Assembly (NCBI GenBank): GCA_021736255.1 | Contig: JAIPGG010000001.1 | Location: 11,506 to 75,505 of the forward strand | Length of the DNA stretch: 64,000 bases | Direction of reading: 5' to 3' | Source of the DNA: Spirochaetales bacterium | GTDB taxonomy: Bacteria; Spirochaetota; Spirochaetia; JAIPGG01 | Shown here: positions 12,150-49,097 of the stretch, piece by piece | Numbering within the stretch: position 1 is the first letter of the stretch | Layout: every line of letters starts with the position of its first letter | Program-made: the position numbers and the translations under genes | Notes under the pieces: generated by a model | Database searches by the model: none | The model's input: the letters and a program-made list of their open reading frames with translations, nothing else | What the model was told of the DNA's origin: nothing

Positions 12150-12215
12150 CCTAACGTACCCGGAAATGCCCGGATTCTAGTTGACCTGCTTGTTCACCCG
12201 GCATACTATAGCCGG

Positions 12216-30104: not shown

Positions 30105-30333
30105 GACTTCCTCCTCTTGTTTGTATTTGCTTTATGGTTTTTCATGCCTTTGTCTATTTCCTTTCGACTGTCATGTCGAATAAGTATAACACGGCTTTTT
30201 TGTTCAGGCTAATAAGTTTGAGGAGCCTTGGGGAACATTGGGGGCAGTCCGGAGTTGAGCTGGTGCAGGAGGTATTACCTTGACGGCTGCACAAGGGGGT
30301 TCTATAAAAAGAAGCAGGGGTGAAGGAGCAATT

Positions 30334-34094: not shown

Positions 34095-34170
34095 ACAAAT
34101 ATGCGCAAGTCAAGCATGAAATGTGCAAAATCTGAACACTTTTTGCTGTACTTGTGCGCAAGTCCGTGCT
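34095..34170. promoter_or_regulatory. Divergent promoter/operator region between btpA/sgcQ and the DeoR regulator, with a 10-bp direct repeat TGCGCAAGTC present twice
   Basis: 'tgcgcaagtc' at 34101..34110 and 34154..34163, plus a related 'tgtgcaaaat' at 34121; AT-rich context. Candidate DeoR operators. Confidence 0.3.
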
Positions 34171-34182
34171 AAGATTTTATTC

Positions 34183-34998
34183 ATGAGCGATCCGAATCCA
34201 CAGGCCCAGGGAGCTACGGCCTTTATCCGCAACCGGGACAGGCTGGACCAGATCTACCGGGTAGTACGGGAAGAGGGGAATGCCTCGGTCAGCTTTCTGG
34301 CGCACCACTGCAAGGTCTCGGAATCCACCATCCGAAGAGACATAAACAATATGCTGGCAATGGATTCATACCCCAATCTCGAACGGGTTCACGGGGGAGT
34401 AGTAATATCTCGCCGGGAGGAGGATGCCTCCCTTATGTTCGATCTCAAATTCGACCTTGCCCGGCCGGAGAAAGAAGCAATTGCTGCGGAGGTGGTTCTC
34501 AAGCTCCATGACGGAGAAAGCATTGCCCTCGATACCGGCACTACGTGTCTGCTGATTGCTCGAAGGCTCGAACAGCTTTCCGGGCTGAAGGTTATCGCCA
34601 CCGATGTAAAGGTTGCAGAGCAGCTCGGTCAGTTTCCCGACATAGAGACGGTTGTTGCCGGCGGATTGATACGTCCGGCATATTTCGGCGTCGGCGGAGC
34701 CGCCAGCATCGAGTTCCTCGATCAGTTTCGGGTCGATACGGCGATTATCGCTGCGGATTCGGTGGACCCTGAAGATGGAATCACCAACCGCTCGCTCTTC
34801 GAGGTCGGAGTCAAACGCAAACTCATGGAAATTGCCAGGCGCGTCATATTAGTAGCTGATTCTTCAAAAATCGGTAAACGTTCGCTCTATCGGGTTTCAG
34901 ACTTTCATGGCATCGAACGTCTTATCACCGACCGCGGCCTTTCTGATGAATATGTAGTCGCATTTCGTGAACGAGGATTACAGGTCGATCTCGTCTGA
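34183..34998 (+). CDS. DeoR/GlpR-family transcriptional repressor (HTH plus sugar-phosphate-binding DeoR C-terminal domain)
   Basis: The N-terminal HTH region 'HHCKVSESTIRRDIN' and a C-terminal DeoR-type sensor domain ('IALDTGTTCLLIARRL', 'AIIAADSVDPEDGITN') are present. I prefer the start at Met 34183 ('MSDPNPQ') over the listed 34123. Confidence 0.75.
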   Translation: MSDPNPQAQGATAFIRNRDRLDQIYRVVREEGNASVSFLAHHCKVSESTIRRDINNMLAMDSYPNLERVHGGVVISRREEDASLMFDLKFDLARPEKEAIAAEVVLKLHDGESIALDTGTTCLLIARRLEQLSGLKVIATDVKVAEQLGQFPDIETVVAGGLIRPAYFGVGGAASIEFLDQFRVDTAIIAADSVDPEDGITNRSLFEVGVKRKLMEIARRVILVADSSKIGKRSLYRVSDFHGIERLITDRGLSDEYVVAFRERGLQVDLV

Positions 34999-35164: not shown

Positions 35165-36220
35165 ATGATGAAAAAAGGACTACTAATTCTTTTCATGGTG
35201 CTTGCTGTATCCGCTTTGGTGTTTGCGGGCGGACAACAGGAAGGAGAAAAAGCCGCCGAAGAATCAGGCGAAGAACAATTCGAGATCGCCATGGTTGTAA
35301 AGCTGGAAGGAGTTGCCTGGTTCGACAACATGAGGCTCGGCATACAGGATTTCAACAGTGATTTCGATGATGTAAATGCCTATCAGATCGGCGCGGATAC
35401 GGCGGACCCTGCTGCTCAGGTGGCTTTGGTAGAGGACCTGATCGCGAAGGGTGTTGATGCTATACTGGTTGTTCCGAATGATCCGGAATCACTTGTACCG
35501 GCGTTCAAAAAAGCGAACAATGCAGGAATTCTCACGTTTACTCATGAAGCTTCCGTACAGCGGCAGGTCAGCTATGATGTCGAGGCTTTCGACAACACTG
35601 CATACGGCCGCCACATGATGGATGTTATGGCTGATTGGATGGATGAAGAAGGGGTATGGCAGCCCTTTGTCGGGCACTTGACTTCGACGACCCACAATGA
35701 ATGGGTTGATGGAGAAATTGCTCAGGCACAGGAAAAGTATCCCAATCTAAAACAGGCAACCAACCGGATCGAAGAGAAGGAAAACCAGCAGATCGCTTAT
35801 GAAAAGGCTCTCGAACTTCTCAAGACCTATCCTGATATAGAAGCAATGATGGGAAGTGCAATGAGCACCGTACCCGGCGTTGCACAGGCGATCGAGGAAA
35901 AGGGGCGGATCGGTAAAGTTGCTGCGTTCGGTACGTGTCTGCCATCGGTAGCAGGCGATTATCTGGAAAGCGGAGCGGCAAAGTCGATTCACTTCTGGGT
36001 ACCGGCAGACGCCGGCTATGTCACTGCTCATGCGGCATATCTCTCCCTCAAGGGTGAAGAAATCAAGGAAGGCATGGATCTCGGAAAACCCGGTTATGAA
36101 AGCATCACCATACAGAAGAACGACTCCGGAGTACCTGTTATTTATGGACAGGCCTGGGTAGACGTTAATAAAGACAACCTCGATGAATGGAAAGATGCCG
36201 ACGGCAATTACAAGCTCTAA
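35165..36220 (+). CDS. Sugar ABC transporter periplasmic substrate-binding lipoprotein (PBP1 family; ribose/AI-2 LsrB-like)
   Basis: Signal peptide plus a 'GGQQEGEKAAEE' linker; 'IAMVVKLEGVAWFDNMRLG', 'KGVDAILVVPND' typical of periplasmic binding protein type 1. Confidence 0.75.
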   Translation: MMKKGLLILFMVLAVSALVFAGGQQEGEKAAEESGEEQFEIAMVVKLEGVAWFDNMRLGIQDFNSDFDDVNAYQIGADTADPAAQVALVEDLIAKGVDAILVVPNDPESLVPAFKKANNAGILTFTHEASVQRQVSYDVEAFDNTAYGRHMMDVMADWMDEEGVWQPFVGHLTSTTHNEWVDGEIAQAQEKYPNLKQATNRIEEKENQQIAYEKALELLKTYPDIEAMMGSAMSTVPGVAQAIEEKGRIGKVAAFGTCLPSVAGDYLESGAAKSIHFWVPADAGYVTAHAAYLSLKGEEIKEGMDLGKPGYESITIQKNDSGVPVIYGQAWVDVNKDNLDEWKDADGNYKL

Positions 36221-36240
36221 ACCAATACCGGCATATTTAC

Positions 36241-36276
36241 GGCAGTCTCGTCATAACGGCGGGGCTGCCTTTCTTG
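36241..36276 (+). promoter_or_regulatory. Intercistronic stem-loop between the SBP and ATPase genes (possible partial terminator/attenuator)
   Basis: 'GGCAG-tctcgtcataacggcgggg-CTGCC' followed by 'TTTCTT'. This is the common arrangement in ABC operons, giving SBP over-expression. Confidence 0.2.
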
Positions 36277-36295
36277 TCCGGGGAGAAGGGAAATT

Positions 36296-37813
36296 ATGAG
36301 TGAAGCCATATTAGATGTGCGTAATATCACAAAAACCTTCGCCGGGGTAACGGCCCTTAAAAATGTGGATCTAAAGATTGATGTCGGAGCAATTCATTGT
36401 CTCGTGGGAGAGAACGGTTCCGGAAAGTCCACCCTTATTAAGATTATTGGTGGAGTTCTTCAACCGGATTCAGGTTCGGTCACTATTAACGGGGTTGCAT
36501 ATGATAGTCAAAACCTCCGTGCAATCGAGGCTATTCGGGGCGGTATACAGATCATCTATCAGGATCTTGCCCTTTTTCCGAACTTATCGGTGGTGGAAAA
36601 TATCTCGATGAACCAGATGGTCGAGGCCAACGATAAATTGATCAAGTGGAAAGAGGCTTATGAGATCGCTGGACAAGCTCTGAGTCGAATTGAAGAAGAG
36701 ATCGATCTGAACGAGAAGGTCGAAAATCTTTCGATGGCTAAACAGCAGATTGTAGCGATAACCCGTGCTCTTACACAGAATGCACGGCTCGTGATTATGG
36801 ACGAGCCCACTTCTGCAATTACGCGGGAGGATGTAGACCATCTGTTTCGGGTAATACTTCGATTGAAGAAAATGGGCATTGCTACACTCTTTGTCAGCCA
36901 TAAGTTGAGCGAGGTGTTCGAGATTGCGGAAGAGGTTACCGTTATTCGGGACGGAAATAAAGTAGGGGATTATCCAGCTGGAGAATTGGACAACGACAAA
37001 CTTACCAATCTCATGACCGGTCGTATGATCGAATACAAGCCTTACTTCTATCAGGATACGGAACCGGAAAAGCCGAATCTCCTCGAGGTACGTAACCTGC
37101 AAAAGAGTGGTCAGTATGAAAAAATTTCCTTTACCCTGCGCAGAGGAGAGATACTGGGGATCACGGGCTTGATTGGCTCGGGGCGGACTGAAACGGCACT
37201 CTCCCTTTTCGGGATAAACCCTCCCGATGAAGGGGAAATTATAATCGACGGGAAACCGGTTGTAATTCATTCAACACATGATGCGATCCGCCACGGAATC
37301 GGCTATCTTCCGGAAGACCGGCTGAATCAAGGGCTTTTTCAGGAGCATCCGATCACCGACAACATAGTTGTTACGGTGCTGAAGAGGCTTTTGGACAAGA
37401 GGGGACTCATAAACTCTGAGAAACGGAAAACTGAAGGGAACCGTTGGATCAAAGAGCTCAGCATCAAAACCCCTTCCGGGGAGAATCCTGCCAACAGTCT
37501 TTCCGGGGGGAATCAACAACGTGTAGTATTGGCAAAATGGCTCGCCACGAACCCGAAAATATTCATTCTCGACGGACCGACAATAGGAATCGACATCGGA
37601 TCGAAGAGTACAATTCACGATATAATCCGTCGGCTTGCCGGAGAAGGGATGGGAATCATTATGATATCGGATGAGATCCAGGAGGTGCTTCAGAACTGCA
37701 ACCGGGTTCTGGTCATGTACAAAGGAAGACTCGTTCGAGAGATTCCCAATGCCGCCGAAGCGGATGAAGATGACGTGTTTGCAGCTGTCAGCGGAACCAG
37801 CGGGGGTGTGTGA
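36296..37813 (+). CDS. Sugar ABC transporter ATP-binding protein with two fused ABC domains (RbsA/MglA/LsrA-like)
   Basis: Walker A 'GENGSGKST' and a second 'GLIGSGRTE'; ABC signatures 'LSMAKQQIV' and 'LSGGNQQRV'; Walker B 'LVIMDEPT'/'IFILDGPT'. Confidence 0.85.
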   Translation: MSEAILDVRNITKTFAGVTALKNVDLKIDVGAIHCLVGENGSGKSTLIKIIGGVLQPDSGSVTINGVAYDSQNLRAIEAIRGGIQIIYQDLALFPNLSVVENISMNQMVEANDKLIKWKEAYEIAGQALSRIEEEIDLNEKVENLSMAKQQIVAITRALTQNARLVIMDEPTSAITREDVDHLFRVILRLKKMGIATLFVSHKLSEVFEIAEEVTVIRDGNKVGDYPAGELDNDKLTNLMTGRMIEYKPYFYQDTEPEKPNLLEVRNLQKSGQYEKISFTLRRGEILGITGLIGSGRTETALSLFGINPPDEGEIIIDGKPVVIHSTHDAIRHGIGYLPEDRLNQGLFQEHPITDNIVVTVLKRLLDKRGLINSEKRKTEGNRWIKELSIKTPSGENPANSLSGGNQQRVVLAKWLATNPKIFILDGPTIGIDIGSKSTIHDIIRRLAGEGMGIIMISDEIQEVLQNCNRVLVMYKGRLVREIPNAAEADEDDVFAAVSGTSGGV

Positions 37814-38826
37814 TTATGCTGAAAAACCTTTTCAAATCAACCGAGTCCTATCTGCTGATCGTTCTTTTGGCCTTTATTGTAGTGGTCGGTTTTATAAACC
37901 CGAAATTCTTCACCATAGAGAACCTGTTTGACCTGCTCAGAAGCAGTTCAGGTATGGCAATACTGGCGATGGGGTTCTTTATCGTTCTTTTGTCCGGCGG
38001 GATCGATGTTTCGTTTACCGCCATTGCTATTAGCGCTCAGTACATTGCCGTGAATTCTCTCATCGCATCGGGGGTGGACAACCTGGCGGTTGCTTTTCTC
38101 ATTGCCGTGGGTGTGGGGATTGCCGCAGGTGCAATCAATGCTGTGTTTATCGGCCTGTTCAACGTGCCCACCCTTATCACCACGCTGGGAACAATGAGCC
38201 TGTTTCATGGAGCGCTCTTGGAGTTCATGGGAACGAAAGCGGTAAACACCGGCGGGCTTCCGGAATGTTTTAAGACCTTCGGGCATTTCGACATTCTGAA
38301 TCTTACCCGGGCTGACGGTACTGAATACGGGCTCTCTGTTTTCTTCCTCATACTCGTAATCGTTGTGGTGGTTACCTGGTTCATTCTCAAATATACGCAA
38401 ATCGGCCGCGGTGTATATGCAATCGGAGGTAACAAGGAAGCAGCAAAACGGGCCGGCTTCAATATTCCCAAGATCCAGTTCTTCATATACATGTATGTTG
38501 GTTTACTGGCCGGCATTATGGGAATTATGCATGTTTCTCTGATTCGCTACAGCAATCCCAATTATATTGTGGGTAGTGAACTCGGGGTAATTGCAGCGGT
38601 TGTAATCGGGGGAACGCGAATTACCGGCGGCCGCGGGACTATTCTCGGCACCCTGGTGGGAGTAGGACTCATTGTGGTTCTCGAAAAAAACCTGGTGCTC
38701 ATCGGATTATCCTCGTACTGGCATCAGTTTTTTATCGGGCTGATTATCATCATCGGTGTCAGTATAACGTATCTGCAAAACAAGATTCGCAGTAAAAAGA
38801 ACTTGATCTTTGTTCGGGATACCTGA
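37810..38826 (+). CDS. Sugar ABC transporter permease (RbsC/LsrC-like)
   Basis: 338-aa polytopic membrane protein. It has a 4-nt overlap with the ATPase gene and the typical branched-chain/ribose permease pattern. Confidence 0.8.
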   Translation: MIMLKNLFKSTESYLLIVLLAFIVVVGFINPKFFTIENLFDLLRSSSGMAILAMGFFIVLLSGGIDVSFTAIAISAQYIAVNSLIASGVDNLAVAFLIAVGVGIAAGAINAVFIGLFNVPTLITTLGTMSLFHGALLEFMGTKAVNTGGLPECFKTFGHFDILNLTRADGTEYGLSVFFLILVIVVVVTWFILKYTQIGRGVYAIGGNKEAAKRAGFNIPKIQFFIYMYVGLLAGIMGIMHVSLIRYSNPNYIVGSELGVIAAVVIGGTRITGGRGTILGTLVGVGLIVVLEKNLVLIGLSSYWHQFFIGLIIIIGVSITYLQNKIRSKKNLIFVRDT

Positions 38827-38854
38827 TCATGAATGTAGGAACGGGAGTTAGCGT

Positions 38855-39886
38855 ATGAAGCTTACAATCAAGAATATGCAGAACTTTGTCCTGTTTGTTA
38901 TCCTCTTAGCTGTGGTTGCCGTTATTTCGATTTCCCTGCCGGATAAGTTCTTGACTGCAATCAATTTTCAATCCATGACCAGCCAATTTCCCGAATTCGG
39001 TTTGATGGCCCTTGCTATGATGATGGCAATGATAACCGGCGGTATCGATCTCTCGGTGGTTTCCGTCGCAAACCTATCGGGAGTAATGGCCGCTCTGGTG
39101 TTGACCTCTCAGTTAGGCGCAGACGGCGGAATTTCCGCTACTATGTTGATTGTTTTGGCGATTATTGTAGCACTTGTTACCTCGGTTGTGGCAGGAGCGA
39201 TTAATGGATTAATTATTACATTAGCCGGAGTGCCGGCTATCTTGGCAACCTTAGGAACTCAGGGTCTCTTTTTGGGCATAGCAATCGTAATCACCGAAGG
39301 GCACAGCATCAGCGGTTTCCCACCGGAGTATCTCTTTGTCGGAATGGGGCAAATATTGGGATTGCCTATGCCGTTGGTCATCTTTTTGATCACGATAGCG
39401 TTGCTGCTGGTAATTATGAAGAAAACCCGTCAGGGGTTTAATATGTACGTGGTAGGCGCTAATCCTATTGTTTCACGGTTTTCGGGAGTGAACAATACGA
39501 GAGCCCTGATTCAGACATACATGTTGACCGGTCTTATGGCGGGTATTGCCTCGATAATCATAATCTCCAGGGTTAATTCTATGCGTCCCGGCTACGGTTC
39601 CGCCTATCTGCTGCAGGCAGTTTTGGTAACCGTTATGGGGGGCACCGATCCCCGGGGCGGATTTGGTAATGTTTTCGGTGTGGTTATGGCGGTTGTAATC
39701 CTGCAGGTTATTCAAAGTGGATTGAATATTATGTCGTTCAGTCCATTTTTCAAAAACTTTACCTGGGGCTTTATGCTGCTGCTGATTATGGTAATAAACT
39801 TCTATTTGAATAGATATCAGCAAGGAAGGCGAATAGCAGAAACAAAGAAGCGGGTAGCGGCGGAAGCGTCTGGCAATTCACCCTAA
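38855..39886 (+). CDS. Sugar ABC transporter permease (second subunit, LsrD-like)
   Basis: 343-aa polytopic membrane protein, paralogous to the preceding permease. Confidence 0.8.
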   Translation: MKLTIKNMQNFVLFVILLAVVAVISISLPDKFLTAINFQSMTSQFPEFGLMALAMMMAMITGGIDLSVVSVANLSGVMAALVLTSQLGADGGISATMLIVLAIIVALVTSVVAGAINGLIITLAGVPAILATLGTQGLFLGIAIVITEGHSISGFPPEYLFVGMGQILGLPMPLVIFLITIALLLVIMKKTRQGFNMYVVGANPIVSRFSGVNNTRALIQTYMLTGLMAGIASIIIISRVNSMRPGYGSAYLLQAVLVTVMGGTDPRGGFGNVFGVVMAVVILQVIQSGLNIMSFSPFFKNFTWGFMLLLIMVINFYLNRYQQGRRIAETKKRVAAEASGNSP

Positions 39887-40040: not shown

Positions 40041-40100
40041 TACCGATAGAATAGGAAGGAGAAAACGAGCACAAAGATTTATCAACGGGGAGAAGTGGAT

Positions 40101-41102
40101 ATGGGAAAGAATGATATTGACTCGCGAACCAAGCGTTCCTTGCTGAGGACGATGGTTCGAATACGGGAGTTTGAAGACAGCGTCGGAGAAATGCACCTCC
40201 GCGGTTTAACGGCGGGGTCAATGCTTCACTTGTCGGTAGGAGAAGAAGCGATTGCAGCCGGAATCGGTTTGGCAATGCAGGAAGGTGATGTTTTTACGAC
40301 TCATCATAGAGGGCACGGGATTTTCATCGCGAGAGGCGGTGAAATGAACAGGATGATGGCCGAAATTTTCGGAAAATCAGATGGATATTGCCGCGGGAAA
40401 GGCGGTTCGATGCACATTGCAGATGTTCATTACGGGCATTTGGGGGCAAACGCTATAGTAGGTGGAAATATTGCCATAGCGATGGGTGGCGGTTTTACTC
40501 AGAACTATCGGAAAACCTCCAATGTAAGCGTCGCCTTTTTCGGCGACGGTGCCTTGAATCAAGGTGTCCTGTACGAATCGATGAACATGGCTGCTCTCTG
40601 GGATTTGCCGGTGATGTTCGCTGTTGTTAACAATCAGTACGGGATGGGAACCCGAATCGACAGAGCCTCCGCCAGTCAGGAATTCGTCAAGCGCGGTGAG
40701 AGCTTTGGGCTGCGCTCCTTGCAGGTGGACGGAATGGATGTGGAAGCGGTCTATCAGGGGGCGAATCGGCTTTTTGAACACAGCAGGTCCGGAAAAGGGC
40801 CGACGTTTTTTATATGTGATGCATACAGGTTTTACGGTCATGGACGAAAAGATCCTAGCCCCTATCGGGAAAAGAACGAAGAGAAAAAATGGTGGGACCG
40901 CGATCCGATTCCCGCCTATAAAGATACATTGATCTCAGCTGATCTGATTTCAGATGCTGATTATCAGGAAGATCTTGATGCTGCCAAAGCCGAGGTTGCT
41001 GATGCTGTTGAGTTTGCCAAGAATTCGCAGGTGCCGGAGGAAAACGACTTGTACACCTATGTCTATGTTGATCCGATTGATGCTTCCGGGACTATCGGCT
41101 GA
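40101..41102 (+). CDS. TPP-dependent 2-oxoacid/acetoin dehydrogenase E1 component, alpha subunit
   Basis: TPP-binding 'FFGDGALNQGVLYESMNMAALWDLPVMFAVVNNQYG' (GDG...N motif). A GGAG RBS precedes the ATG at 40101; the listed ORF begins at GTG 40095. Confidence 0.8.
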   Translation: MGKNDIDSRTKRSLLRTMVRIREFEDSVGEMHLRGLTAGSMLHLSVGEEAIAAGIGLAMQEGDVFTTHHRGHGIFIARGGEMNRMMAEIFGKSDGYCRGKGGSMHIADVHYGHLGANAIVGGNIAIAMGGGFTQNYRKTSNVSVAFFGDGALNQGVLYESMNMAALWDLPVMFAVVNNQYGMGTRIDRASASQEFVKRGESFGLRSLQVDGMDVEAVYQGANRLFEHSRSGKGPTFFICDAYRFYGHGRKDPSPYREKNEEKKWWDRDPIPAYKDTLISADLISDADYQEDLDAAKAEVADAVEFAKNSQVPEENDLYTYVYVDPIDASGTIG

Positions 41103-41122
41103 AGCGGGGAAGGAGAGCGCAT

Positions 41123-42097
41123 ATGAGTGTCATGATGTATCGAGAGGCTTTACGCCTTGCTTTATATGAAGAGATGAAGCGGGATGACCGTGTGTTTCTG
41201 GCCGGAGAGGATGTTGGGTCATATGGTGGGGCTTATGCCGTTTCCCGCGGATTGATCCAGGAATTCGGGTCTGAACGGCTAGTGGGTACACCTATCAGTG
41301 AGGCTGCAATAATTGGAATGGGCATCGGAGCGGCAATGACCGGTTTAAGACCTGTCGTTGAACTGATGTATATCGATTTCGTCGGACTTGCAATGGATCA
41401 AATTGCCAATCAGGCGGCGAAATTCCGGTATATGAGCGGCGGTCAACTCAAGATCCCCATGGTTATGCGGATGCAGGGCGGGACCGGACGATCTGCCGGC
41501 GCACAACACTCACAGAGCCTCGAGGCATGGCTGGTTCATATCCCCGGGCTCAGGGTGGTAATGCCCGCTTCCGCCCGGGATGCCCGGGGGCTGCTCAAAA
41601 CGGCAATTCGCAGCGATGACCCGGTGGTTTTTATCGAGCACAAGGGCCTGTATGCCAAAAAAGAAGAGGTTCCCGAAGAGGAAGAGCTCGTGCCATTCGG
41701 AAAGGCCCGAATAGCCCGTTCGGGTTCGGATGTAACCCTCATCACCTATTCACGAATGGTGTATACTGCTCTTGAAGCGGCCGAAGAGGCGTCTGCGGGG
41801 GGAATCGACGTAGAGGTGATTGATCTCAGAACGCTCAACCCCCTCGATTATCATACGATCGAGAAATCGGTTCGAAAAACCGGGACGGTTGTTGTAGCAT
41901 ATGAGGCACATCGAAACGTCGGGATGGGAAGCGAAATCAGCGCCCGTATCGGGGAAGAACTCATGGATGTTTTGAAGCATCCGGTTGTTCGCATCGGTGG
42001 CAAGGATGTACCGATACCCGCTACGGTTCTCGAGAAGTATTCGATTCCCCAGAAGCAAGACCTTCTCGAAGGGATTGAACAGGCCGCAGGTCGTTAA
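41123..42097 (+). CDS. TPP-dependent dehydrogenase E1 component, beta subunit (transketolase-like pyrimidine-binding and C-terminal domains)
   Basis: 324 aa; 'EAAIIGMGIGAAMTGLRPVVELMYIDF' is the typical E1-beta. Confidence 0.8.
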   Translation: MSVMMYREALRLALYEEMKRDDRVFLAGEDVGSYGGAYAVSRGLIQEFGSERLVGTPISEAAIIGMGIGAAMTGLRPVVELMYIDFVGLAMDQIANQAAKFRYMSGGQLKIPMVMRMQGGTGRSAGAQHSQSLEAWLVHIPGLRVVMPASARDARGLLKTAIRSDDPVVFIEHKGLYAKKEEVPEEEELVPFGKARIARSGSDVTLITYSRMVYTALEAAEEASAGGIDVEVIDLRTLNPLDYHTIEKSVRKTGTVVVAYEAHRNVGMGSEISARIGEELMDVLKHPVVRIGGKDVPIPATVLEKYSIPQKQDLLEGIEQAAGR

Positions 42098-42141
42098 TCT
42101 CTGAAGCCGGGAAACCGGTACATGAAGAAAGGAGCTAGTGT

Positions 42142-42393
42142 ATGACGTATGAGGTAAAGATGCCCCAGTTAACAGAAACAATGGAGGCCGGTACAATCAT
42201 CGAGTGGAAGAAGGCCACTGGCGAGTACGTAGAAAAAGGGGAAAAACTTGTCGAGGTTGAAACAGACAAGATGACGTTTGAAGTCGAGGCATTGGACAGC
42301 GGATATCTCTGTGAGATATTCCATGAAGGAGATTCCGAGGTCCCTGTAGGAGAGTTGATCGCTAAACTCGCTGATTCGATGGACGAATGTTGA
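42142..42393 (+). CDS. Stand-alone biotinyl/lipoyl-domain protein (lipoyl carrier; the E2 catalytic domain is absent)
   Basis: 83 aa; 'VEVETDKMTFEVEA' carries the lipoyl-lysine in the ETDK(A/M) context, flanked by the hammerhead 'GTIIEWKK...GDSEVPVGELIA'. Confidence 0.7.
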   Translation: MTYEVKMPQLTETMEAGTIIEWKKATGEYVEKGEKLVEVETDKMTFEVEALDSGYLCEIFHEGDSEVPVGELIAKLADSMDEC

Positions 42394-42396
42394 ACG

Positions 42397-43041
42397 TTAT
42401 TTGTCCACAGCCTCGTTCTCTGAAGGAGGCTGTGGGGGAGTTATGGTGCGGCGTGAACGGGCGTAGGAAAGATCTTCCGTTTCCATCCCCCTTTTTTCCA
42501 GTTCATCGAGTATCAGCTCTGCCGTCCAGGAGGAGGCAAGACCGACTACGGAGGTGCAGCCGTCTGTATGAGCGCCTGCTTCTTCAAATGCCCGGCGTTC
42601 ATCGGTGTTCCAGATATCAAAACTCCGCCCGTAGAGCCGGCGGTGAATTTTGCCACAGAGGAGAGAACCGTATTTTTTCTGAAACCGTTCAGCCAACTGT
42701 TCGGCCATACGAAAAGATGCGTATTTCTCGTTTCGGTCTCCATCGAATCTCTCGCGGCTTCTACCGAAGAGGGTGCTCATGACCATTACACCCCCCGAGT
42801 AGCCGCCGCACGGGCCGAGTGTAGTCAGGCCTCCGCCGGTTGCGAGGCCGCTGCCGGCTTTGAATACATCGTCGTTTCGAATGTTTAGGGTATCCTGGAC
42901 AGCGGCGATGGTGCTTTGGGAACAGCCGCGGTAATCCCGTTCATAGGCGAATCCCAGGTCGTAGGCTTTTTGAATAAGTTCTTCCCTGTTTGCGATTGAC
43001 TGCATACCAAGGATTGTAATCCTGCGCAAGCTCCCAGTCAA
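42397..43041 (-). CDS. C_GCAxxG_C_C-family putative redox-active protein
   Basis: 'DYRGCSQSTIAAV' (CAQS-like) and 'TLGPCGGYSGGVMVMSTLFG' match the two conserved Cys segments of the family. The start may be the internal Met at 43005. Confidence 0.5.
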   Translation of the reverse strand: MTGSLRRITILGMQSIANREELIQKAYDLGFAYERDYRGCSQSTIAAVQDTLNIRNDDVFKAGSGLATGGGLTTLGPCGGYSGGVMVMSTLFGRSRERFDGDRNEKYASFRMAEQLAERFQKKYGSLLCGKIHRRLYGRSFDIWNTDERRAFEEAGAHTDGCTSVVGLASSWTAELILDELEKRGMETEDLSYARSRRTITPPQPPSENEAVDK

Positions 43042-43094
43042 TTGACGAAGGAATTTGGCCGGGAGAACGGAAACGATAGATTAATACAAAGGAG

Positions 43095-44111
43095 ATGGCC
43101 ATGAAGAAGTTTTTGAACAAACCGGAAAACTTTGTCGATGAGTTTCTCGAAGGAATTCTCATAGCTCATCCGGACAAGCTCGAGCATGTACAGGATGATT
43201 TGAGATGCATCGTTACGAAGAACAAGCAGCCCGGAAGAGTAGCTATTGCTACAGGAGGCGGCTCGGGACATCTGCCGCTGTTTCTCGGATATGTTGGAGA
43301 CGGGGTGATCGACGGATGCTCGGTAGGAGGAGTTTTTCAATCGCCGAGTGCGGAACAGATGTACAACGTGACCAAGCACATCGACAACGGCGCTGGAGTG
43401 CTGTATCTGTACGGTAATTACGGCGGAGACATTATGAATTTCGACATGGCCGCGGAAATGGCGGACATGGATGATATTCGGGTGGAGTCCTTTATTGCCG
43501 CCGACGATGTAGCTTCAGCCCCGAAGGGTGAAGAAGGAAAACGGCGGGGTGTTGCAGGTATCTTTTTTCTCTACAAGGTGGCTGGAGCGAAGGCGGACAA
43601 GAAGGCGAGCCTGGACGAAGTAAAAGCGGTAGTTGAAAAGGCTGCCTCCGGTACCCGCACGATGGGAGTGGCATTGACTCCCTGTATTGTTCCTGAAGTG
43701 GGAAAACCTTCCTTTCAACTCGGCGAAAACGAGATGGAGATCGGAATGGGCATTCATGGTGAACCCGGAATTCGCCGGGGAGAGATTCGCCCGGCAGATG
43801 AAGTAGTTGATGAGATGATGGAGGCAATTGTCGCCGATCTACCTTACAAGTCCGGTGACGAGGTGTCGGTATTGATCAACGGCCTGGGTGCAACACCGAA
43901 AGAAGAACTGTATTTGGTAAACAGGCGGGTTGCTCAATTTCTGAAAGAAAAAGAAATGACGGTCTATCGGACATTTGTGGACGAGTTCGCCGCCTCGCTG
44001 GAGATGGCCGGGTTCTCAATATCACTGATGAAGATGGACGGGGAGCTCAAAGAACTGATTGACGCTCCTGCAAATACGCCCTTCTATGCTCAGCATTCGT
44101 GCAATAACTGA
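43095..44111 (+). CDS. dhaK: Dihydroxyacetone kinase subunit DhaK (Dak1 domain)
   Basis: 'VAIATGGGSGHLPLFLGYVG' (GGGSGHEP-like substrate-binding loop), about 335 aa, 'GMGIHGEPG'. Confidence 0.8.
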   Translation: MAMKKFLNKPENFVDEFLEGILIAHPDKLEHVQDDLRCIVTKNKQPGRVAIATGGGSGHLPLFLGYVGDGVIDGCSVGGVFQSPSAEQMYNVTKHIDNGAGVLYLYGNYGGDIMNFDMAAEMADMDDIRVESFIAADDVASAPKGEEGKRRGVAGIFFLYKVAGAKADKKASLDEVKAVVEKAASGTRTMGVALTPCIVPEVGKPSFQLGENEMEIGMGIHGEPGIRRGEIRPADEVVDEMMEAIVADLPYKSGDEVSVLINGLGATPKEELYLVNRRVAQFLKEKEMTVYRTFVDEFAASLEMAGFSISLMKMDGELKELIDAPANTPFYAQHSCNN

Positions 44112-44127
44112 ACCGAACTGGAGGTGA

Positions 44128-44754
44128 ATGTATATGGACAGTGGACGAGCACAGAAGATCATTGAACGTATACGGCAAATCATGGCGGAACAAAAAGACT
44201 ATCTAATAGAGATAGACGGCCGAATGGGTGACGGCGATCTCGGCCTAACAATGGAAAAGGCCTTTACCGCTGCAGCGGACGAAATAAAAGACAAAGACAT
44301 TGAGGATGCCGGGAAACTGTTTATGAAAGCAGGAATGGTAATGGCCAAGGCTGCACCATCGACGATGGGAACCCTTGTGGCAACCGGCTTCATGCGCGGC
44401 GGAAAGGGGATGAGTGGAGAAACCGAAGCAGGAGAGCTCTCTACATTTTTTACATCATTTGTTGAGGGGCTGATGGAACGGGGAAAATCGAAACCCGGAG
44501 AAAAGACGATCATCGATGCTCTTCATCCTGCAGCACAAGCACTTGAAAAGGCTGCTGGTGAGGGAATAGGAGCTGTAGAAGCTTTGGAAGCTGCACTGTC
44601 GGCAGGCCGGAAAGGTTTGGAAGCAACGAAAGATATGGTAGCCCAGCATGGCCGAGTTGCCTATTATCAGGATCAGTCAAAAGGAATGGAAGATCCGGGG
44701 GCGACCGCCGGAGTGTTTATCCTCCGCGGCTTCCTCGATGTTTTCAAGGAGTAG
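44128..44754 (+). CDS. dhaL: Dihydroxyacetone kinase subunit DhaL (Dak2 ADP-binding domain)
   Basis: 'IDGRMGDGDLGLTM' Dak2 nucleotide-binding motif; 208 aa, all-helical. Confidence 0.75.
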   Translation: MYMDSGRAQKIIERIRQIMAEQKDYLIEIDGRMGDGDLGLTMEKAFTAAADEIKDKDIEDAGKLFMKAGMVMAKAAPSTMGTLVATGFMRGGKGMSGETEAGELSTFFTSFVEGLMERGKSKPGEKTIIDALHPAAQALEKAAGEGIGAVEALEAALSAGRKGLEATKDMVAQHGRVAYYQDQSKGMEDPGATAGVFILRGFLDVFKE

Positions 44755-44844
44755 AGGCCGTATGCAGATTATTTTAATCTGAATCAAACAAGCAATTGTG
44801 CCTGAAATTGCAGGGACAAAAAGGCCGGAGTAGACAAGGAGGCG

Positions 44845-45930
44845 ATGATGAGGTACCGCAAGCTTGGTAACAGTGGGCTAATCGTGAGTGCTTTTGCTCT
44901 CGGAACTATGCAGTTCGGAGAGAAAATGAATATGGGAGCACTCGGACAAAAAGAGACGAATAACATGGTATCAGCTGCAATCGACAGGGGAATCAACTTT
45001 ATCGATACGGCTGATGTCTACAGTCTCGGTGAGAGCGAAACACTTTTAGGGAATGCTCTCAAGGGAAAAAGGGAGGATATTGTACTTGCCTCCAAGGTTC
45101 GCCTTCCGATGAGCGACAATTTTAATCGGAGCGGCGCTACTCGCGTGAACATCATGCGGGGAATCGAAAGCAGCCTGAAACGTCTGCAAACTGACTACCT
45201 GGATCTGTATCAGCTGCATGGCTGGGACAGCAATACACCTTTGGAGGAAACCCTGCGGACTCTCGATGACCTTGTCCGCCAGGGTAAGGTCCGATATGTC
45301 GGCCTGAGCAACTATACCTCATGGCAGGCGGCTACTGCCATCGGTTTGCAAAAACAAGAAAATCTCGAGCGGTTTGTAACTGCACAGCTTCATTACAGCC
45401 TGGTCGATCGGGGTATAGAGCACGAGTGGCAGAGTTTTGCTGAATATTCAGGCCTGGGCATTCTGGTGTGGAGCCCGTTAGCCGGTGGATTTTTGTCCGG
45501 AAAGTACGACCGCGGCAATCCGCCTCCGGAGGGAACTCGTTTTCGCGAGGCCGGACAGTTTGTTCCATTTGACCGGGAACGGGGATTCAAGGTGGTGGAT
45601 GTTCTCAAGGAGGTTGCCTCGAAATACGGGGTGAGTCCTGCTCGCGTGGCTTTGAAATGGACTATGATTCAGCCGGGGATAAGCAGTGTGATCGTTGCGG
45701 CCAGGAAGCTCGAACATCTGGATGACAATATAGCGGCCCTCGATCTGGAGCTGGAGGAAAAAGACATAGCGAAGATAGATAAGGTTTCTCATCCGGGATT
45801 TCCCTACCCGAAGTGGATGGTGCTGCAGCTCGATGTTGCAGAAGATCCCAGACCGAAAATTCTCTATCCGGAAAGGTATGAATCCGGAGGAATGTGGAAT
45901 GATTTACGGGGAACCCAGTGGGAAGGATGA
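44845..45930 (+). CDS. Aldo/keto reductase family oxidoreductase
   Basis: 'YRKLGNSGLIVSAFALGTMQFG', 'INFIDTADVYS', 'VRYVGLSNYTSWQ' typical AKR motifs. Confidence 0.8.
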   Translation: MMRYRKLGNSGLIVSAFALGTMQFGEKMNMGALGQKETNNMVSAAIDRGINFIDTADVYSLGESETLLGNALKGKREDIVLASKVRLPMSDNFNRSGATRVNIMRGIESSLKRLQTDYLDLYQLHGWDSNTPLEETLRTLDDLVRQGKVRYVGLSNYTSWQAATAIGLQKQENLERFVTAQLHYSLVDRGIEHEWQSFAEYSGLGILVWSPLAGGFLSGKYDRGNPPPEGTRFREAGQFVPFDRERGFKVVDVLKEVASKYGVSPARVALKWTMIQPGISSVIVAARKLEHLDDNIAALDLELEEKDIAKIDKVSHPGFPYPKWMVLQLDVAEDPRPKILYPERYESGGMWNDLRGTQWEG

Positions 45931-45994: not shown

Positions 45995-46030
45995 CAAAAA
46001 AAGGCCGCTCAGATTGAGCGTCCTTTTTGT
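45995..46030. terminator. Bidirectional rho-independent terminator between the convergent AKR and opuAC genes
   Basis: 'AAAAAAAGGCCGCTCA-gat-TGAGCGTCCTTTTTG': a GC-rich stem flanked by an A-tract upstream and a T-tract downstream. Confidence 0.6.
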
Positions 46031-46065: not shown

Positions 46066-46959
46066 TTACGGAAGCCAGTCTTCTACAACACTCTGGTTGT
46101 CATTGACCCACTTCTCTGCATTTTCATAGGGATCTGCGCCTTCTTCTTCATTCATGACCATGAGTTCACCGATTTCAGCATCGGTCATCTCGAAGTTGTC
46201 CAGAATGGCATAGGCTTCGGGCATATCCTCTTTCAGGCCCTGACGGACGATGGTCTTAATGACTTCAGCTTCGCCGAAGTACTTTACCCGGTCTCCGCCG
46301 CCTTCGAGGTATTTCAGATCCCAGCGACCGAACATCCAGTGAGGACTCCATCCGGGGACGGCGATCCACTCTTCGTTCTTGATAGCGGTTCCGAGAGCCG
46401 CGGTCATGGCGGCACTGCTTGAAGCCTTCAGCTCGATAGTGCCTTCCCAGCCCTTGTCTGCAATCAGGTCTTCTGTCTGCTGCATAACGCCGGCGCCTGC
46501 ATCGATACCAACAATCTCGTTGTCGAACTTGTCGGCATATTTTGCAAGATCATCAAGGGTTTCAGCTTCTACATAGGTAGGTACGACGATACCGCTCTTG
46601 GTTCCTTCGTACCAGGGGCCGAGATCTACAATGTCGCCCTTGTTCTTGGCAAAGTAGTCCTTATGGAGAGTAGGCAGCCAGGCTGCGAGGGTTACTTCCG
46701 AATCACCGGTGGCAAGGGCCTGCCAGATAGGTCCAATATCGACCATCTTGACGCTGGCGTTATAACCCTGCTGGTCGAGGACGTAATCCATCAGATGAGT
46801 AGCAGCTTCGCTGGCGGACCAGCCTGATACTGCGAGCAGTTCGATGTTTCCTTTCTCTTCAGCCTGTGCTGCTCCTTCCTGCTGTCCCTCTGCGAAGACC
46901 ATGCCGCTTGTTGCGACGAGCATTACAATAATCAATACACTAAGTAGTTTACGATTCAC
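46066..46959 (-). CDS. opuAC: Glycine betaine ABC transporter substrate-binding lipoprotein
   Basis: Signal peptide plus 'EGQQEGAAQAEE' linker; the OpuAC/ProX fold pattern ('GWSASEAATHLM', 'WLPTLH'). Confidence 0.75.
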   Translation of the reverse strand: MNRKLLSVLIIVMLVATSGMVFAEGQQEGAAQAEEKGNIELLAVSGWSASEAATHLMDYVLDQQGYNASVKMVDIGPIWQALATGDSEVTLAAWLPTLHKDYFAKNKGDIVDLGPWYEGTKSGIVVPTYVEAETLDDLAKYADKFDNEIVGIDAGAGVMQQTEDLIADKGWEGTIELKASSSAAMTAALGTAIKNEEWIAVPGWSPHWMFGRWDLKYLEGGGDRVKYFGEAEVIKTIVRQGLKEDMPEAYAILDNFEMTDAEIGELMVMNEEEGADPYENAEKWVNDNQSVVEDWLP

Positions 46960-47026
46960 GTTTACCTCCTTGCATGAATCACTTGTCTATAATTAACGGG
47001 ATGAATCACCCCGCTATCTCCATTAT

Positions 47027-47932
47027 TTATTCAGTTTCTGCCGGGCTTTTTCGTCTTCTCCCGGCTACGTTCTGCGTAATTCGGTCAAGAAGCATTGCGA
47101 CTATTACAACGCCGAGTCCGGCCTCGAAGGCCTCTCCCGGTCTGAAGCGCGTCAATGCCGCCAGCACCTTTCCACCAAGTCCGCCTGCTCCGATCATTGC
47201 TGCAATAACGACCATGGAGAGGGCCAGCATGATGGTCTGGTTGATTCCCGCCATAATGGTGGGTTTGGCCAGAGGAAGCTGCACCTTCAAAAGTTTCTGT
47301 GCAGGGGTTGTTCCAAAGGATTCGGATGCCTCGATCAGTTCCTTGTCGATCTGCCGGATGCCGAGGTTGGTTAACCGGATAGCCGGCGGTACGGCGAAGA
47401 TCATGGTTGCAAAGGCTGCAGCTACTGTTCCCAGACCGAAGAACGGGATCATCGGTATAAGATAAACAAACGGAGGCATCGTCTGCATAAAGTCGAGTAT
47501 CGGTGTGATCACCTTATTGACTCGATCGTCCAATGCCGCCCAGATGCCGAGGGGAATGCCGACAATCAGCGCAAGAATGGTGGAAAGCAGGACCAGTACG
47601 ATTGTGTATATCGTAGCGTCCCACAGCTGCAGGTTCCAGGTGACCAAAAGCCCGATCAGGGCAAATATTCCCAGATTCCTGCCGATGAACTTCCATACAA
47701 CAAAGGTTATCACGGCGATTACAACAAGCGTGGGTACCGCTATGATCCCCTCTCCGAGTCCTTCTACACCGGTTTCGATAAAATTGGAAGCTATTTTGGT
47801 TACACCTGCAAGAGCTTCCGTCAGGAAATCGAGTATAGCGAGGGTAATCTTGTCCAACGGGAATTTGGGTAGTTCGAAATTGAATATATTACTCATCATA
47901 CATTTGTTCTCCCTGTTCTGCGAGGGCGGCAA
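47027..47932 (-). CDS. opuAB: Glycine betaine/proline ABC transporter permease
   Basis: Polytopic membrane protein with the ABC permease EAA-like region; the OpuAB/ProW pattern. Confidence 0.8.
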   Translation of the reverse strand: MPPSQNRENKCMMSNIFNFELPKFPLDKITLAILDFLTEALAGVTKIASNFIETGVEGLGEGIIAVPTLVVIAVITFVVWKFIGRNLGIFALIGLLVTWNLQLWDATIYTIVLVLLSTILALIVGIPLGIWAALDDRVNKVITPILDFMQTMPPFVYLIPMIPFFGLGTVAAAFATMIFAVPPAIRLTNLGIRQIDKELIEASESFGTTPAQKLLKVQLPLAKPTIMAGINQTIMLALSMVVIAAMIGAGGLGGKVLAALTRFRPGEAFEAGLGVVIVAMLLDRITQNVAGRRRKSPAETE

Positions 47933-49097
47933 GAACCGAACCGCGGTATATTACCCCTTTGAGGTTGCGTTTCTCGTCGACCACAGCTATCGGGTCCCGG
48001 CTGTCTGCAACCATGGGGAATATCTGCTTCAGCGGCTCATCCGGGGGTACCGTCGGAACCTCTTGTGTGCAGATATGATCAATCCACGCATCTTCATTTT
48101 TAACGCCCTGGACTGCTGCTTCGGCGGAGAGGTATCCAACGAGTTCCCGGTTCTGCTTGACGACCATGACACCTGCCAGCCCGAACTCCTTAATGACATG
48201 AAGCGCCGTTCGCGGGCCGTCTTTGAGGGTTACCACATGCTGGTGTTTGAGCATAACGTCTTCAGCCGAAAGAACCTTGGTGATATCCACGTTTTCAACG
48301 AACTTTTCAACGTAGCGGGTTGCCGGGTCGGTAAGAATTTCATCCGGTGTTCCGATCTGTACGACCTTGCCGTCTTTCATCAGGACGATTCGATCACCCA
48401 TCTTGAGTGCTTCGTCGAGGTCGTGCGTGATAAAAACAATGGTCTTTTGAACCTGGCTCTCCAGTTTTAAGAGCTCATCCTGCATATCGCTTCGAATCAG
48501 GGGGTCGAGTGCACTAAAAGCCTCGTCCATCAGCAGGATGGCGGGATCGACCGTCAAGGCTCGGGCCAGTCCTACTCGCTGCTTCATTCCTCCGCTGAGT
48601 TTTTCCGGCAGATAATCTCCCCAACCACCGAGACCCACGAGTTCGAGCGATTCCTGGGCCTTATTTCGCCGTGTTTCCTCGTCGACTTCCTGGATCTCCA
48701 GGCCGAACTCAACGTTTTCGAGTACGGTTCGATGAGGAAAAAGGGCAAAACTCTGAAACACCATTCCGAATTGTTTCCGGCGGAACATGCGAAGCTCATC
48801 ATCGTCAAGAGTGGTTACATCCGTTCCGTCTACAATAACTGTGCCGTAGGTGGGTTCGATCAAGCGGTTCAGCATCCGGATGAGTGTCGATTTTCCACTT
48901 CCGGACAAACCCATGACTACGAGGGTTTCGCCCTCGTACACATTAAACGAGGTATCCTGAACTCCAACGGCCTGTCCCGTTTTGTTGAGGATTTCCTCCT
49001 TCGATACACCCTGTGACAGAAGTTTTTTCGCTTGTGCCGGGTGTTTTCCGAAAATTTTATACAGATCCTTGATCTGTATCATTACCTTCTTGTCCAT
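47889..49097 (-). CDS. opuAA: Glycine betaine/proline ABC transporter ATP-binding protein with tandem C-terminal CBS domains
   Basis: Walker A 'GLSGSGKST', signature 'LSGGMKQRV', Walker B 'ILLMDEAFS', and a C-terminal CBS pair. Confidence 0.85.
   Translation of the reverse strand: MDKKVMIQIKDLYKIFGKHPAQAKKLLSQGVSKEEILNKTGQAVGVQDTSFNVYEGETLVVMGLSGSGKSTLIRMLNRLIEPTYGTVIVDGTDVTTLDDDELRMFRRKQFGMVFQSFALFPHRTVLENVEFGLEIQEVDEETRRNKAQESLELVGLGGWGDYLPEKLSGGMKQRVGLARALTVDPAILLMDEAFSALDPLIRSDMQDELLKLESQVQKTIVFITHDLDEALKMGDRIVLMKDGKVVQIGTPDEILTDPATRYVEKFVENVDITKVLSAEDVMLKHQHVVTLKDGPRTALHVIKEFGLAGVMVVKQNRELVGYLSAEAAVQGVKNEDAWIDHICTQEVPTVPPDEPLKQIFPMVADSRDPIAVVDEKRNLKGVIYRGSVLAALAEQGEQMYDE

Follow-up and report, generated by a model that had tools for sequence, protein, structure and literature searches.

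In a stretch of 64,000 nucleotides from a Spirochaetales bacterium (GenBank assembly GCA_021736255.1, contig JAIPGG010000001.1, positions 11,506 to 75,505; hereafter the window), a thiamine pyrophosphate (TPP)-dependent E1 alpha/beta pair is followed by an 83-aa protein which consists of a lipoyl domain only. We propose that this acetoin-dehydrogenase-type E1 and its free lipoyl carrier serve sugar catabolism, in that a 1-deoxy-2-ketose, or its phosphate, would be cleaved in a lipoyl-dependent fashion to an acetyl-lipoyl group and an aldose phosphate; the probability that we assign to this reading is about 0.5. A preliminary description, made from the sequence of the window alone, had suggested cleavage of an imported keto-sugar or diketone with the acyl unit held on the carrier, an interpretation that turned out to be partly right, and the assignment of such an E1 and a free carrier to sugar catabolism is what is new here. 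The clade to which the E1 belongs looks widespread and its function appears to be undescribed: a literature search on the themes of E1, lipoyl, FGGY, DhaK, acetoin dehydrogenase and deoxy-ketoses yielded no description of the cluster.

Results

E1-alpha, the TPP-binding subunit (positions 40095/40101-41102, forward strand, with the NCBI start at 40101; PF00676, 250.6 bits), carries the GDG...NN TPP motif in the form 'FFGDGALNQG...VVNNQYG' and is separated by 20 nt from E1-beta (41123-42097, forward strand), in which the transketolase-like pyrimidine-binding and C-terminal domains were identified (PF02779, 156 bits; PF02780, 131 bits). These and all further domain calls on open reading frames (ORFs) of the window come from Pfam and NCBIfam profile scans. 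E1-alpha does not reach the cut-off of the pyruvate dehydrogenase (PDH) E1-alpha equivalog TIGR03182 (352.9 bits, cut-off 393.85), and the alphaproteobacterial orthologues of the pair are followed by an AcoC-type E2; judged by sequence, the E1 is thus acetoin-dehydrogenase-like rather than a PDH, in support of the type originally assumed. Similarly, E1-alpha scored 212 bits with TIGR03181 (cut-off 411), and E1-beta passes an NCBIfam model of 'subfamily' rank only.

About 170 loci were collected by scans of species-representative genomes and metagenomes and from annotated plasmid and chromosome records. In a neighbour-joining tree of the concatenated E1-alpha and E1-beta sequences (644 columns, 200 bootstraps) the pair of the window resides in a clade (200/200) with members from Spirochaetota, Trueperaceae, Meiothermus, a second Deinococcota-like locus, many Alphaproteobacteria and one metagenome-assembled genome (MAG) of the Chthoniobacterales, and within this clade the Spirochaetota and Trueperaceae form a sub-clade of their own (200/200). 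Outside the clade are the sigma-54-regulated aco operon of Enterococcus gilvus, an E1 of A. baumannii whose context was not verified, the E1E2E3 of Brevibacillus, which is linked to a phosphotransferase system (PTS), and an actinobacterial group. The E1 of the window clade is 42-45% identical to that of E. gilvus and A. baumannii (42.5% for the aco E1 of E. gilvus). The comparison with AcoA/AcoB that had been called for therefore gave a divided answer, as the Aco-like type was borne out, yet the clade is separate from the sigma-54-dependent aco operon. Both subunits are full length in all loci, and the E1-alpha proteins of the Spirochaetota are 62-69% identical to that of the window. A further sugar-linked complex of the Aco-like type is encoded outside the clade in Brevibacillus laterosporus (L094), where the genes for E1-alpha, E1-beta, E2 and LpdA come directly after PTS IIA/IIB/IIC and a PRD-type regulator and have a SorC regulator downstream of them.

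The clade is always found in carbohydrate loci, together with an ATP-binding cassette (ABC) importer, an FGGY kinase, a regulator of the SorC, LacI or DeoR type, a short-chain dehydrogenase/reductase (SDR) or aldo/keto reductase (AKR) and, in some loci, RbsD/FucU. The linkage to FGGY kinases, ABC importers and sugar regulators is kept across four phyla and more than 70 loci. A ribulokinase-like FGGY kinase, an ABC importer for sugars and a regulator of the sugar type are the neighbours met most often; SDRs are frequent as well, the dihydroxyacetone kinase subunits DhaK and DhaL (DhaKL) are not. Most consistently, and in every phylum, the clade is accompanied by the kinase termed FGGY kinase A in the window (28557-30104, reverse strand), which is ribulokinase/pentulose-kinase-like with scores below the cut-offs of both matching models (NF003154, 373.9 bits; TIGR01315, 320.9 bits). 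It adjoins the E1 genes and the E2 or lipoyl gene in 52 of the 58 loci with an AcoC-type E2, and it is also present in the DhaK-type clusters of Spirochaetota wherever the contig allows, though not in locus L001. The alphaproteobacterial operon is stereotyped: a SorC regulator, substrate-binding protein (SBP), ATPase and permease precede E1-alpha, E1-beta, the AcoC-type E2, an AhpD-like CMD protein, the FGGY kinase and one or two SDRs. It was found in S. meliloti, Rhizobium hidalgonense, Tritonibacter mobilis and Nitratireductor.

Within the Spirochaetota the gene set comprises FGGY kinases A and B, an M29-like and a BtpA gene, the ABC importer, E1-alpha, E1-beta, the lipoyl-only protein, DhaK, DhaL and AKR. 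The same set recurs in other contigs (L002, L003, L004, L007-L010, L013, L061, L092 and L100), and hence the arrangement is real and beyond chance. The cluster is thus conserved as a unit among relatives, with at least 13 Spirochaetota loci showing it, and the lack of conservation that had been named as a ground for abandoning the idea was not observed.

A connection to a 1-deoxy-ketose is provided by locus L001, the E1-alpha of which is 68% identical to that of the window. Here, a tight row of genes on one strand encodes a SorC regulator, a ribokinase-like PfkB kinase, a glycyl-radical enzyme (GRE), an activase, an SDR, E1-alpha, E1-beta and the lipoyl-only protein. The GRE is of the YbiW type, matching Escherichia coli YbiW (8ID7/8YJN) over its full length with 795 bits as compared to 634 bits for glycerol dehydratase; a second GRE of the locus is neither YbiW- nor PflD-like. 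In the passages of the literature that treat this 'radical-mediated glycolysis', the YbiW/PflD isomerases are described to convert 1,5-anhydroglucitol-6-phosphate and 1,5-anhydromannitol-6-phosphate to 1-deoxyfructose-6-phosphate (PMC13450708; PMC12441222, citing Ma et al. 2024), which E. coli then cleaves by the aldolase FSA to glyceraldehyde-3-phosphate and hydroxyacetone (PMC13450708; PMC12441222). No FSA-type aldolase was identified within 10 kb in L001, so that the triad of E1-alpha, E1-beta and lipoyl protein, directly downstream of the YbiW-type GRE, occupies the place of the enzyme that breaks the C-C bond. Both systems would have a 1-deoxy-2-ketose phosphate to split, but in place of the products of the FSA aldolase the TPP/lipoyl route would give an acetyl thioester and erythrose-4-phosphate. 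The 1-deoxy-ketose, raised as one possible substrate before any relative had been compared, hereby gains independent support. Being a methyl-ketone acyloin, a 1-deoxy-2-ketose is the substrate type of an acetoin-dehydrogenase E1, and its cleavage fits the pentulose-type FGGY kinase and the AcoC-type E2 of the clade.

The carrier (42142-42393, forward strand) matches PF00364 with 71.8 bits and shows the biotin_lipoyl fold with a lysine in the D-K motif at the hairpin ('ETDKM'), for which lipoylation is predicted from the sequence. Its best NCBIfam matches are lipoyl domains of E2 proteins (E value 6e-21; about 1e-4 for biotin carriers); only models of E2-type lipoyl domains and biotin carriers were among the Pfam and NCBIfam matches, with no GcvH model, and neither a linker nor an E3-binding or catalytic domain was recognised. 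A mis-terminated E2, considered as a candidate, was ruled out, as the lipoyl ORF is closed by a genuine stop codon and the next 645 nt are taken up by a convergent gene of the C_GCAxxG_C_C family. Moreover, the 64-kb window was searched by tblastn with two full E2 proteins, E. coli AceF and Lpd, two AcoC-type E2 proteins, a catalytic-only E2, an AhpD-like CMD protein, LplA and DhaM, and the lipoyl domain was the only match; no 2-oxoacid_dh domain, AcoC-type hydrolase or Lpd is present in the 64 kb. Together with the conservation of the carrier, this establishes the lipoyl-only protein as genuine.

Orthologous carriers of 83-85 aa are encoded in L001, L003, L008, L009, L010, L013, L061, L091, L092 and L100. 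In all 14 intact orthologues the lipoyl-lysine and the whole domain are kept. In addition, two cysteines are invariant throughout the Spirochaetota/Trueperaceae sub-clade, in each of its 14 intact carriers (window, L001, L003, L008-L011, L013, L061, L091, L092, L100), the first about 14 residues past the lipoyl-lysine in 'G[YFVW]LC' ('GYLCEI' in the window) and the second in a C-terminal '[EGA]C' ('DEC' in the window); the lipoyl domains of full and AcoC-type E2 proteins and other free carriers are without them. A word-index search for homologues with the 83-aa carrier returned the carrier itself only, and an exhaustive HMMER search was swamped by multi-lipoyl E2 proteins and is silent on free carriers.

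Some loci deviate. In L002, the lipoyl gene contains an in-frame TAG (position 12066) at a site that is normally E, R or K, which may reflect a pseudogene, a sequencing error or read-through. In L004, the reading frame of E1-beta runs on into the lipoyl domain, giving one protein of 410 aa (11010-12242); the contig has many split genes, and the fusion may be an assembly artefact. L091 harbours two triads of E1-alpha, E1-beta and lipoyl-only protein on one contig (10001-12237 and 19655-20999), one of them with an AP_endonuc_2 TIM-barrel gene and an ABC importer as neighbours, the other, with a carrier devoid of the two cysteines, beside an SDR and a divergent gene of the TAL/FSA family.

What follows E1-beta differs between the lineages. 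Meiothermus, L093 and L116 encode a full E2 with lipoyl, E3-binding and 2-oxoacid_dh domains. The 58 alphaproteobacterial loci have the AcoC-type E2, named acetoin dehydrogenase acetyltransferase by PGAP, in which one lipoyl domain or two are joined to an E3-binding segment and to a domain of the alpha/beta-hydrolase type. In the Trueperaceae (L011), a free lipoyl ORF is followed by a separate catalytic-only E2 of 229 aa with a DHR motif, and in more distant Actinomycetota (L076 and L085) an 80-aa lipoyl ORF is followed by a class II aldolase, a catalytic-only E2, an E3 and an LplA-like ligase. In the Spirochaetota, the 83-85-aa lipoyl protein stands alone. The statement of the preliminary description that the cluster has neither E2 core nor E3 therefore holds for the window and the Spirochaetota loci and fails for the clade as a whole, and as the orthologous clusters carry an E2 in full, AcoC-type or split form, the pathway overall is an E1/E2 system. 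L011 and L076 suggest by analogy that free lipoyl carriers can pair with a separate catalytic protein, and the common sub-clade of Spirochaetota and Trueperaceae implies that the free carrier is older than the loss of the adjacent catalytic gene. In the hunt for a stand-alone catalytic E2 of Spirochaetota a single context was inspected, L097, which proved to be a fragmented ordinary E2. The actinomycetal set (L076, 1716-17280, and L085) is larger than these genes: GlpX, an Fe-ADH, an FGGY kinase and a HAD protein precede the E1 pair, the aldolase is of the fructose-bisphosphate type, and a glycerol-3-phosphate-dehydrogenase-like flavoenzyme is encoded as well.

Downstream of the carrier gene, the convergent C_GCAxxG_C_C gene (42397-43041, reverse strand; PF09719, 72.9 bits) encodes a putative redox-active cysteine protein. 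Of 14 Spirochaetota-type clusters examined, only the window and L002 have it, the L002 homologue overlapping the E1-alpha start in the same orientation, and the gene is thus regarded as accessory. In 21 of the 58 alphaproteobacterial-type loci, the AcoC-type E2 is followed by a small AhpD-like protein of the CMD family (for example L087, 15282-15617, and L088, 15545-15880; also L089 and L090). AhpD is reduced by dihydrolipoyl groups, and by analogy the AhpD-like gene suggests a parallel to the C_GCAxxG_C_C gene of the window.

DhaK (43095-44111; PF02733, 407 bits), the substrate-binding subunit of a dihydroxyacetone-kinase-type kinase, is 38% identical to E. coli DhaK and scores just below the cut-off of TIGR02363 (384.8 bits, cut-off 406.25), and DhaL (44128-44754; PF02734, 141.5 bits), the nucleotide-binding subunit, just reaches that of TIGR02365 (138.8 bits, cut-off 138.3); both genes are on the forward strand. 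DhaM was not detected in the 64-kb window by tblastn; it may be encoded elsewhere, or the kinase may use ATP. DhaK is present in 11 of the 14 Spirochaetota-type clusters (not in L001, L003 and L091), and DhaKL also occur in Meiothermus and a few Alphaproteobacteria, yet not in most operons of the clade, with DhaK lying within 10 kb in 4 of the 58 AcoC-type loci. The constant partners being the FGGY kinase and the ABC importer, the earlier argument that the neighbouring triose kinase points to a C3 product is weak. The AKR (44845-45930, forward strand; PF00248, 262.9 bits; best PDB match 4xk2, 260 bits) is the sole dehydrogenase or reductase found in the cluster.

Upstream of E1-alpha are the four genes of a CUT2 sugar ABC importer (35165-39886, forward strand; PF13407 and ABC matches), encoding the SBP (35165-36220), an ATPase (36296-37813) and two permeases (37810-38826 and 38855-39886). 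The closest solved relative of the SBP is 5BRA (250 bits). The SBPs differ between lineages, 5BRA-like in the window and RbsB-like in S. meliloti, and therefore no ligand can be inferred from them. Thus, all seven genes from E1-alpha to AKR and the importer upstream of them were recovered by ORF calling and Pfam/NCBIfam as they had initially been listed.

Further upstream, a DeoR-family regulator (34123-34998, forward strand; PF00455, PF08220), a TIM-barrel protein of the BtpA/SgcQ family (33236-34045, reverse strand; PF03437, 237.7 bits), a Peptidase_M29-like protein (32003-33094, forward strand; PF02073, 189 bits) and the xylulokinase-like FGGY kinase B (30280-31956, forward strand; TIGR01312, 274 bits, below the cut-off) are encoded. 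The BtpA/SgcQ gene recurs in L003, L004, L008, L010, L092 and L100; the M29-like gene, seen in L002, L003, L009, L092 and L100, is always beside the xylulokinase-like kinase. Both are limited to the Spirochaetota version of the cluster, and their pairing recalls SgcX/SgcQ of the uncharacterised E. coli sgc operon. FGGY kinase A is adjoined by a protein of 427 aa with a double class II aldolase/adducin domain (26890-28173; FucA/AraD/MtnB-like), which is not kept in related loci. About 20 kb off the cluster, a GFO/IDH/MocA oxidoreductase (13132-14337) has levoglucosan dehydrogenase as its best NCBIfam match (212.8 bits, far below the cut-off). A plausible bidirectional terminator-like hairpin (46006-46020) lies 3' of the AKR gene, between the cluster and the choline/glycine-betaine-type ABC transporter immediately downstream (46066-49097, reverse strand; SBP, permease and ATPase with CBS domains); with the exception of this hairpin, a scan for promoters and terminators gave nothing above chance.

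Discussion

From the gene context we infer a class of substrate and an order of steps. The ABC system would import a pentose- or hexose-like compound, which may be turned into a 1-deoxy-2-ketose, probably with a phosphate on its distal end, by the FGGY kinase together with the AKR in the window or with SDRs in other lineages. E1 would then add TPP to the keto carbon and break the C2-C3 bond with release of an aldose phosphate, that is, glyceraldehyde-3-phosphate from a 1-deoxypentulose-5-phosphate such as 1-deoxyxylulose-5-phosphate (DXP), or erythrose-4-phosphate from 1-deoxyfructose-6-phosphate; with DXP, the cleavage would chemically undo the DXP synthase reaction, and an oxidation would follow. 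The two-carbon unit would be passed reductively to the lipoyl-lysine, yielding an acetyl-dihydrolipoyl protein, and the carrier might diffuse, like the H protein of glycine cleavage, to an acyltransferase that forms acetyl-CoA or acetyl phosphate and to a partner that oxidises the dihydrolipoyl group, both presumably encoded outside the window. In view of the split E2 proteins of relatives, it is the parsimonious assumption that the carrier shuttles in this way to partners whose genes lie elsewhere. DhaKL and the AKR may be accessory and salvage unphosphorylated triose or tetrulose by-products. Many of the alphaproteobacterial members (L014, L018, L029-L039, L042, L046-L060) are lichen-associated Acetobacteraceae and Lichenihabitans MAGs, which may point to a sugar or polyol of lichen origin as the substrate.

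Several points weigh against this proposal. The linkage to a YbiW-type GRE and its activase is confined to a single locus, L001, and two scans of the genome and metagenome collections yielded no second GRE-linked triad, the metagenome matches being mostly alphaproteobacterial operons. By tblastn, the 64-kb window is without a GRE, activase, FSA/TAL or SDR and has no obvious source of a 1-deoxy-ketose, which would consequently need to be taken up from outside or formed by the AKR. The substrate is a putative one throughout the clade, assigned from gene context and sequence, and the FGGY kinase could act on the product and not on the substrate. For DhaKL, the AKR and the M29-like and BtpA proteins, any role is putative. 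Finally, no catalytic domain, hydrolase or Lpd is encoded within 10 kb in the Spirochaetota loci. A more radical version, in which the two-cysteine carrier of the Spirochaetota would be loaded with acetyl by E1 from a 1-deoxy-keto sugar and unloaded and reoxidised independently of E2 and E3 by non-canonical partners, we consider doubtful; candidates for such partners might be the M29-like, BtpA-like and C_GCAxxG_C_C proteins or the carrier's own pair of cysteines.

Free or relocated lipoyl domains have precedents. The H protein of the glycine cleavage system is likewise a small free lipoyl protein that moves between separate enzymes; however, there is no homology at the family level, since the carrier of the window matches the E2-type PF00364 only, and the H protein carries an aminomethyl group whereas E1 would load the present carrier with an acyl group. 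Closer at hand, L011 and L076/L085 encode lipoyl and catalytic domains as separate proteins, and the alphaproteobacterial PDH E1-beta with its fused lipoyl domain (PRK11892) illustrates that lipoyl domains can be relocated, but the Spirochaetota differ in that the carrier has no catalytic partner within 10 kb.

Among the other explanations, E1 might act as an oxidative 'transketolase' that splits an ordinary ketose phosphate (xylulose-5-phosphate, ribulose-5-phosphate or fructose-6-phosphate) to a glycolyl-carrier and glyceraldehyde-3-phosphate or erythrose-4-phosphate. The ribulokinase- and xylulokinase-like FGGY kinases and the tie of the clade to pentulose-type kinases would agree with this, and a related chemistry exists: QncN/QncL (and NapB/NapD) transfer a unit from a ketose to lipoyl as a glycolyl group in the biosynthesis of tetrahydroisoquinoline antibiotics. 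Reportedly (Peng et al. 2012), in quinocarcin biosynthesis the PDH-like QncN/QncL acts on a ketose phosphate and turns the dihydroxyethyl unit into a glycolyl thioester on lipoyl, and thus, as in our proposal, a PDH-like E1 loads a C2 unit from a sugar phosphate onto a lipoyl group. That pathway, however, is biosynthetic, ends on an acyl carrier protein (ACP) and handles a glycolyl and not an acetyl unit, and there are no genes for nonribosomal peptide synthetases, polyketide synthases or ACP nearby. Furthermore, an organism with a pentose-phosphate pathway would gain little from such a reaction, glycolyl-CoA is not a common catabolite, a net oxidation would be awkward for fermentative Spirochaetota, and both the AcoC-type E2 and the association with YbiW speak for methyl ketones. 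We therefore regard this explanation as unlikely.

The genes might also encode an ordinary E1 for acetoin or 2,3-butanediol (AcoAB), with E2 and E3 elsewhere and the sugar genes as unrelated neighbours. Like AcoA, the E1 belongs to the PDH_E1_alph_y type, and many homologues are labelled 'acetoin:DCPIP oxidoreductase subunit alpha' by JGI. The likeness to AcoABCL extends to a heterodimeric TPP-dependent E1 of the same subfamily type, to a lipoyl acceptor encoded directly after E1-beta, to the AcoC-type E2 with lipoyl and alpha/beta-hydrolase domains which even the alphaproteobacterial orthologues share, and to the predicted chemistry, by which a methyl-ketone acyloin would give acetyl-lipoyl and an aldehyde. 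Still, the window clade stands apart from the sigma-54-regulated aco operon (200/200 bootstraps, 42-45% identity), lacks the sigma-54-dependent AcoR and lies in sugar import and kinase loci, a linkage to FGGY, ABC and sugar-regulator genes conserved in the four phyla; the alphaproteobacterial orthologues are set in tightly packed sugar operons, and in the Spirochaetota all that is left of the E2 is a lipoyl domain, which has two additional conserved cysteines, and there is no E3 nearby. An ordinary acetoin enzyme is thus quite improbable.

Catabolism of autoinducer-2 (AI-2, derived from 4,5-dihydroxy-2,3-pentanedione, DPD), which the preliminary description had offered as a possibility, would involve import, phosphorylation by an LsrK-like FGGY kinase and reduction by the AKR or direct cleavage by E1 to acetyl and a C3 acid or triose. 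DPD, a 1-deoxy-2,3-diulose, is of the right chemical class, and the SBP and FGGY kinase A are distantly related to LsrB and LsrK. The SBP scores 88 bits with LsrB, however, and of the six residues reported to contact AI-2 in LsrB (Pereira et al. 2009), only K35 is kept besides one conservative change, D116E, the others being replaced (D166T, Q167H, P220S, A222M). FGGY kinase A reaches 237 bits with the LsrK model (cut-off 528), which is less than with the ribulokinase model (374 bits). About 17 genes, three of them for kinases, would make a large cluster for a signal of micromolar concentration, and S. meliloti already has a separate Lsr-type system. An AI-2-like substrate is accordingly very unlikely. 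That the E1 and lipoyl genes of the Spirochaetota are non-functional leftovers of a decayed system which lost the catalytic part of E2, as the TAG in L002 might indicate, is hardly credible, because E1-alpha and E1-beta are full length everywhere and the intact carriers of 14 loci keep the lipoyl-lysine and both cysteines at an E1 identity of just 62-69%, which argues for purifying selection.

If the cleavage of 1-deoxy-2-ketoses by E1 and lipoyl carrier is true, it would represent a third way of breaking the carbon chain of sugars, besides aldolases and transketolase/phosphoketolase, in which the C2 piece is caught directly as an energy-rich acetyl thioester. In the more radical version, independent of E2 and E3, deoxy and anhydro sugars would have a new lipoyl-carrier route to an acetyl thioester and a sugar phosphate, the aerobic counterpart of which would be the widespread, uncharacterised SorC-ABC-E1-AcoC-CMD-FGGY-SDR operon of the Alphaproteobacteria, including S. 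meliloti. The main proposal, if right, would give a function to an operon conserved in more than 70 loci, among them those of cultured Rhizobiaceae and Rhodobacterales, and the clade is open to study in cultured Alphaproteobacteria such as S. meliloti and Tritonibacter. The forms of E2 make up an evolutionary series from the full protein over the split one to the carrier only, which bears on the question of how lipoyl-dependent complexes are dismantled into freely diffusing parts in anaerobes.

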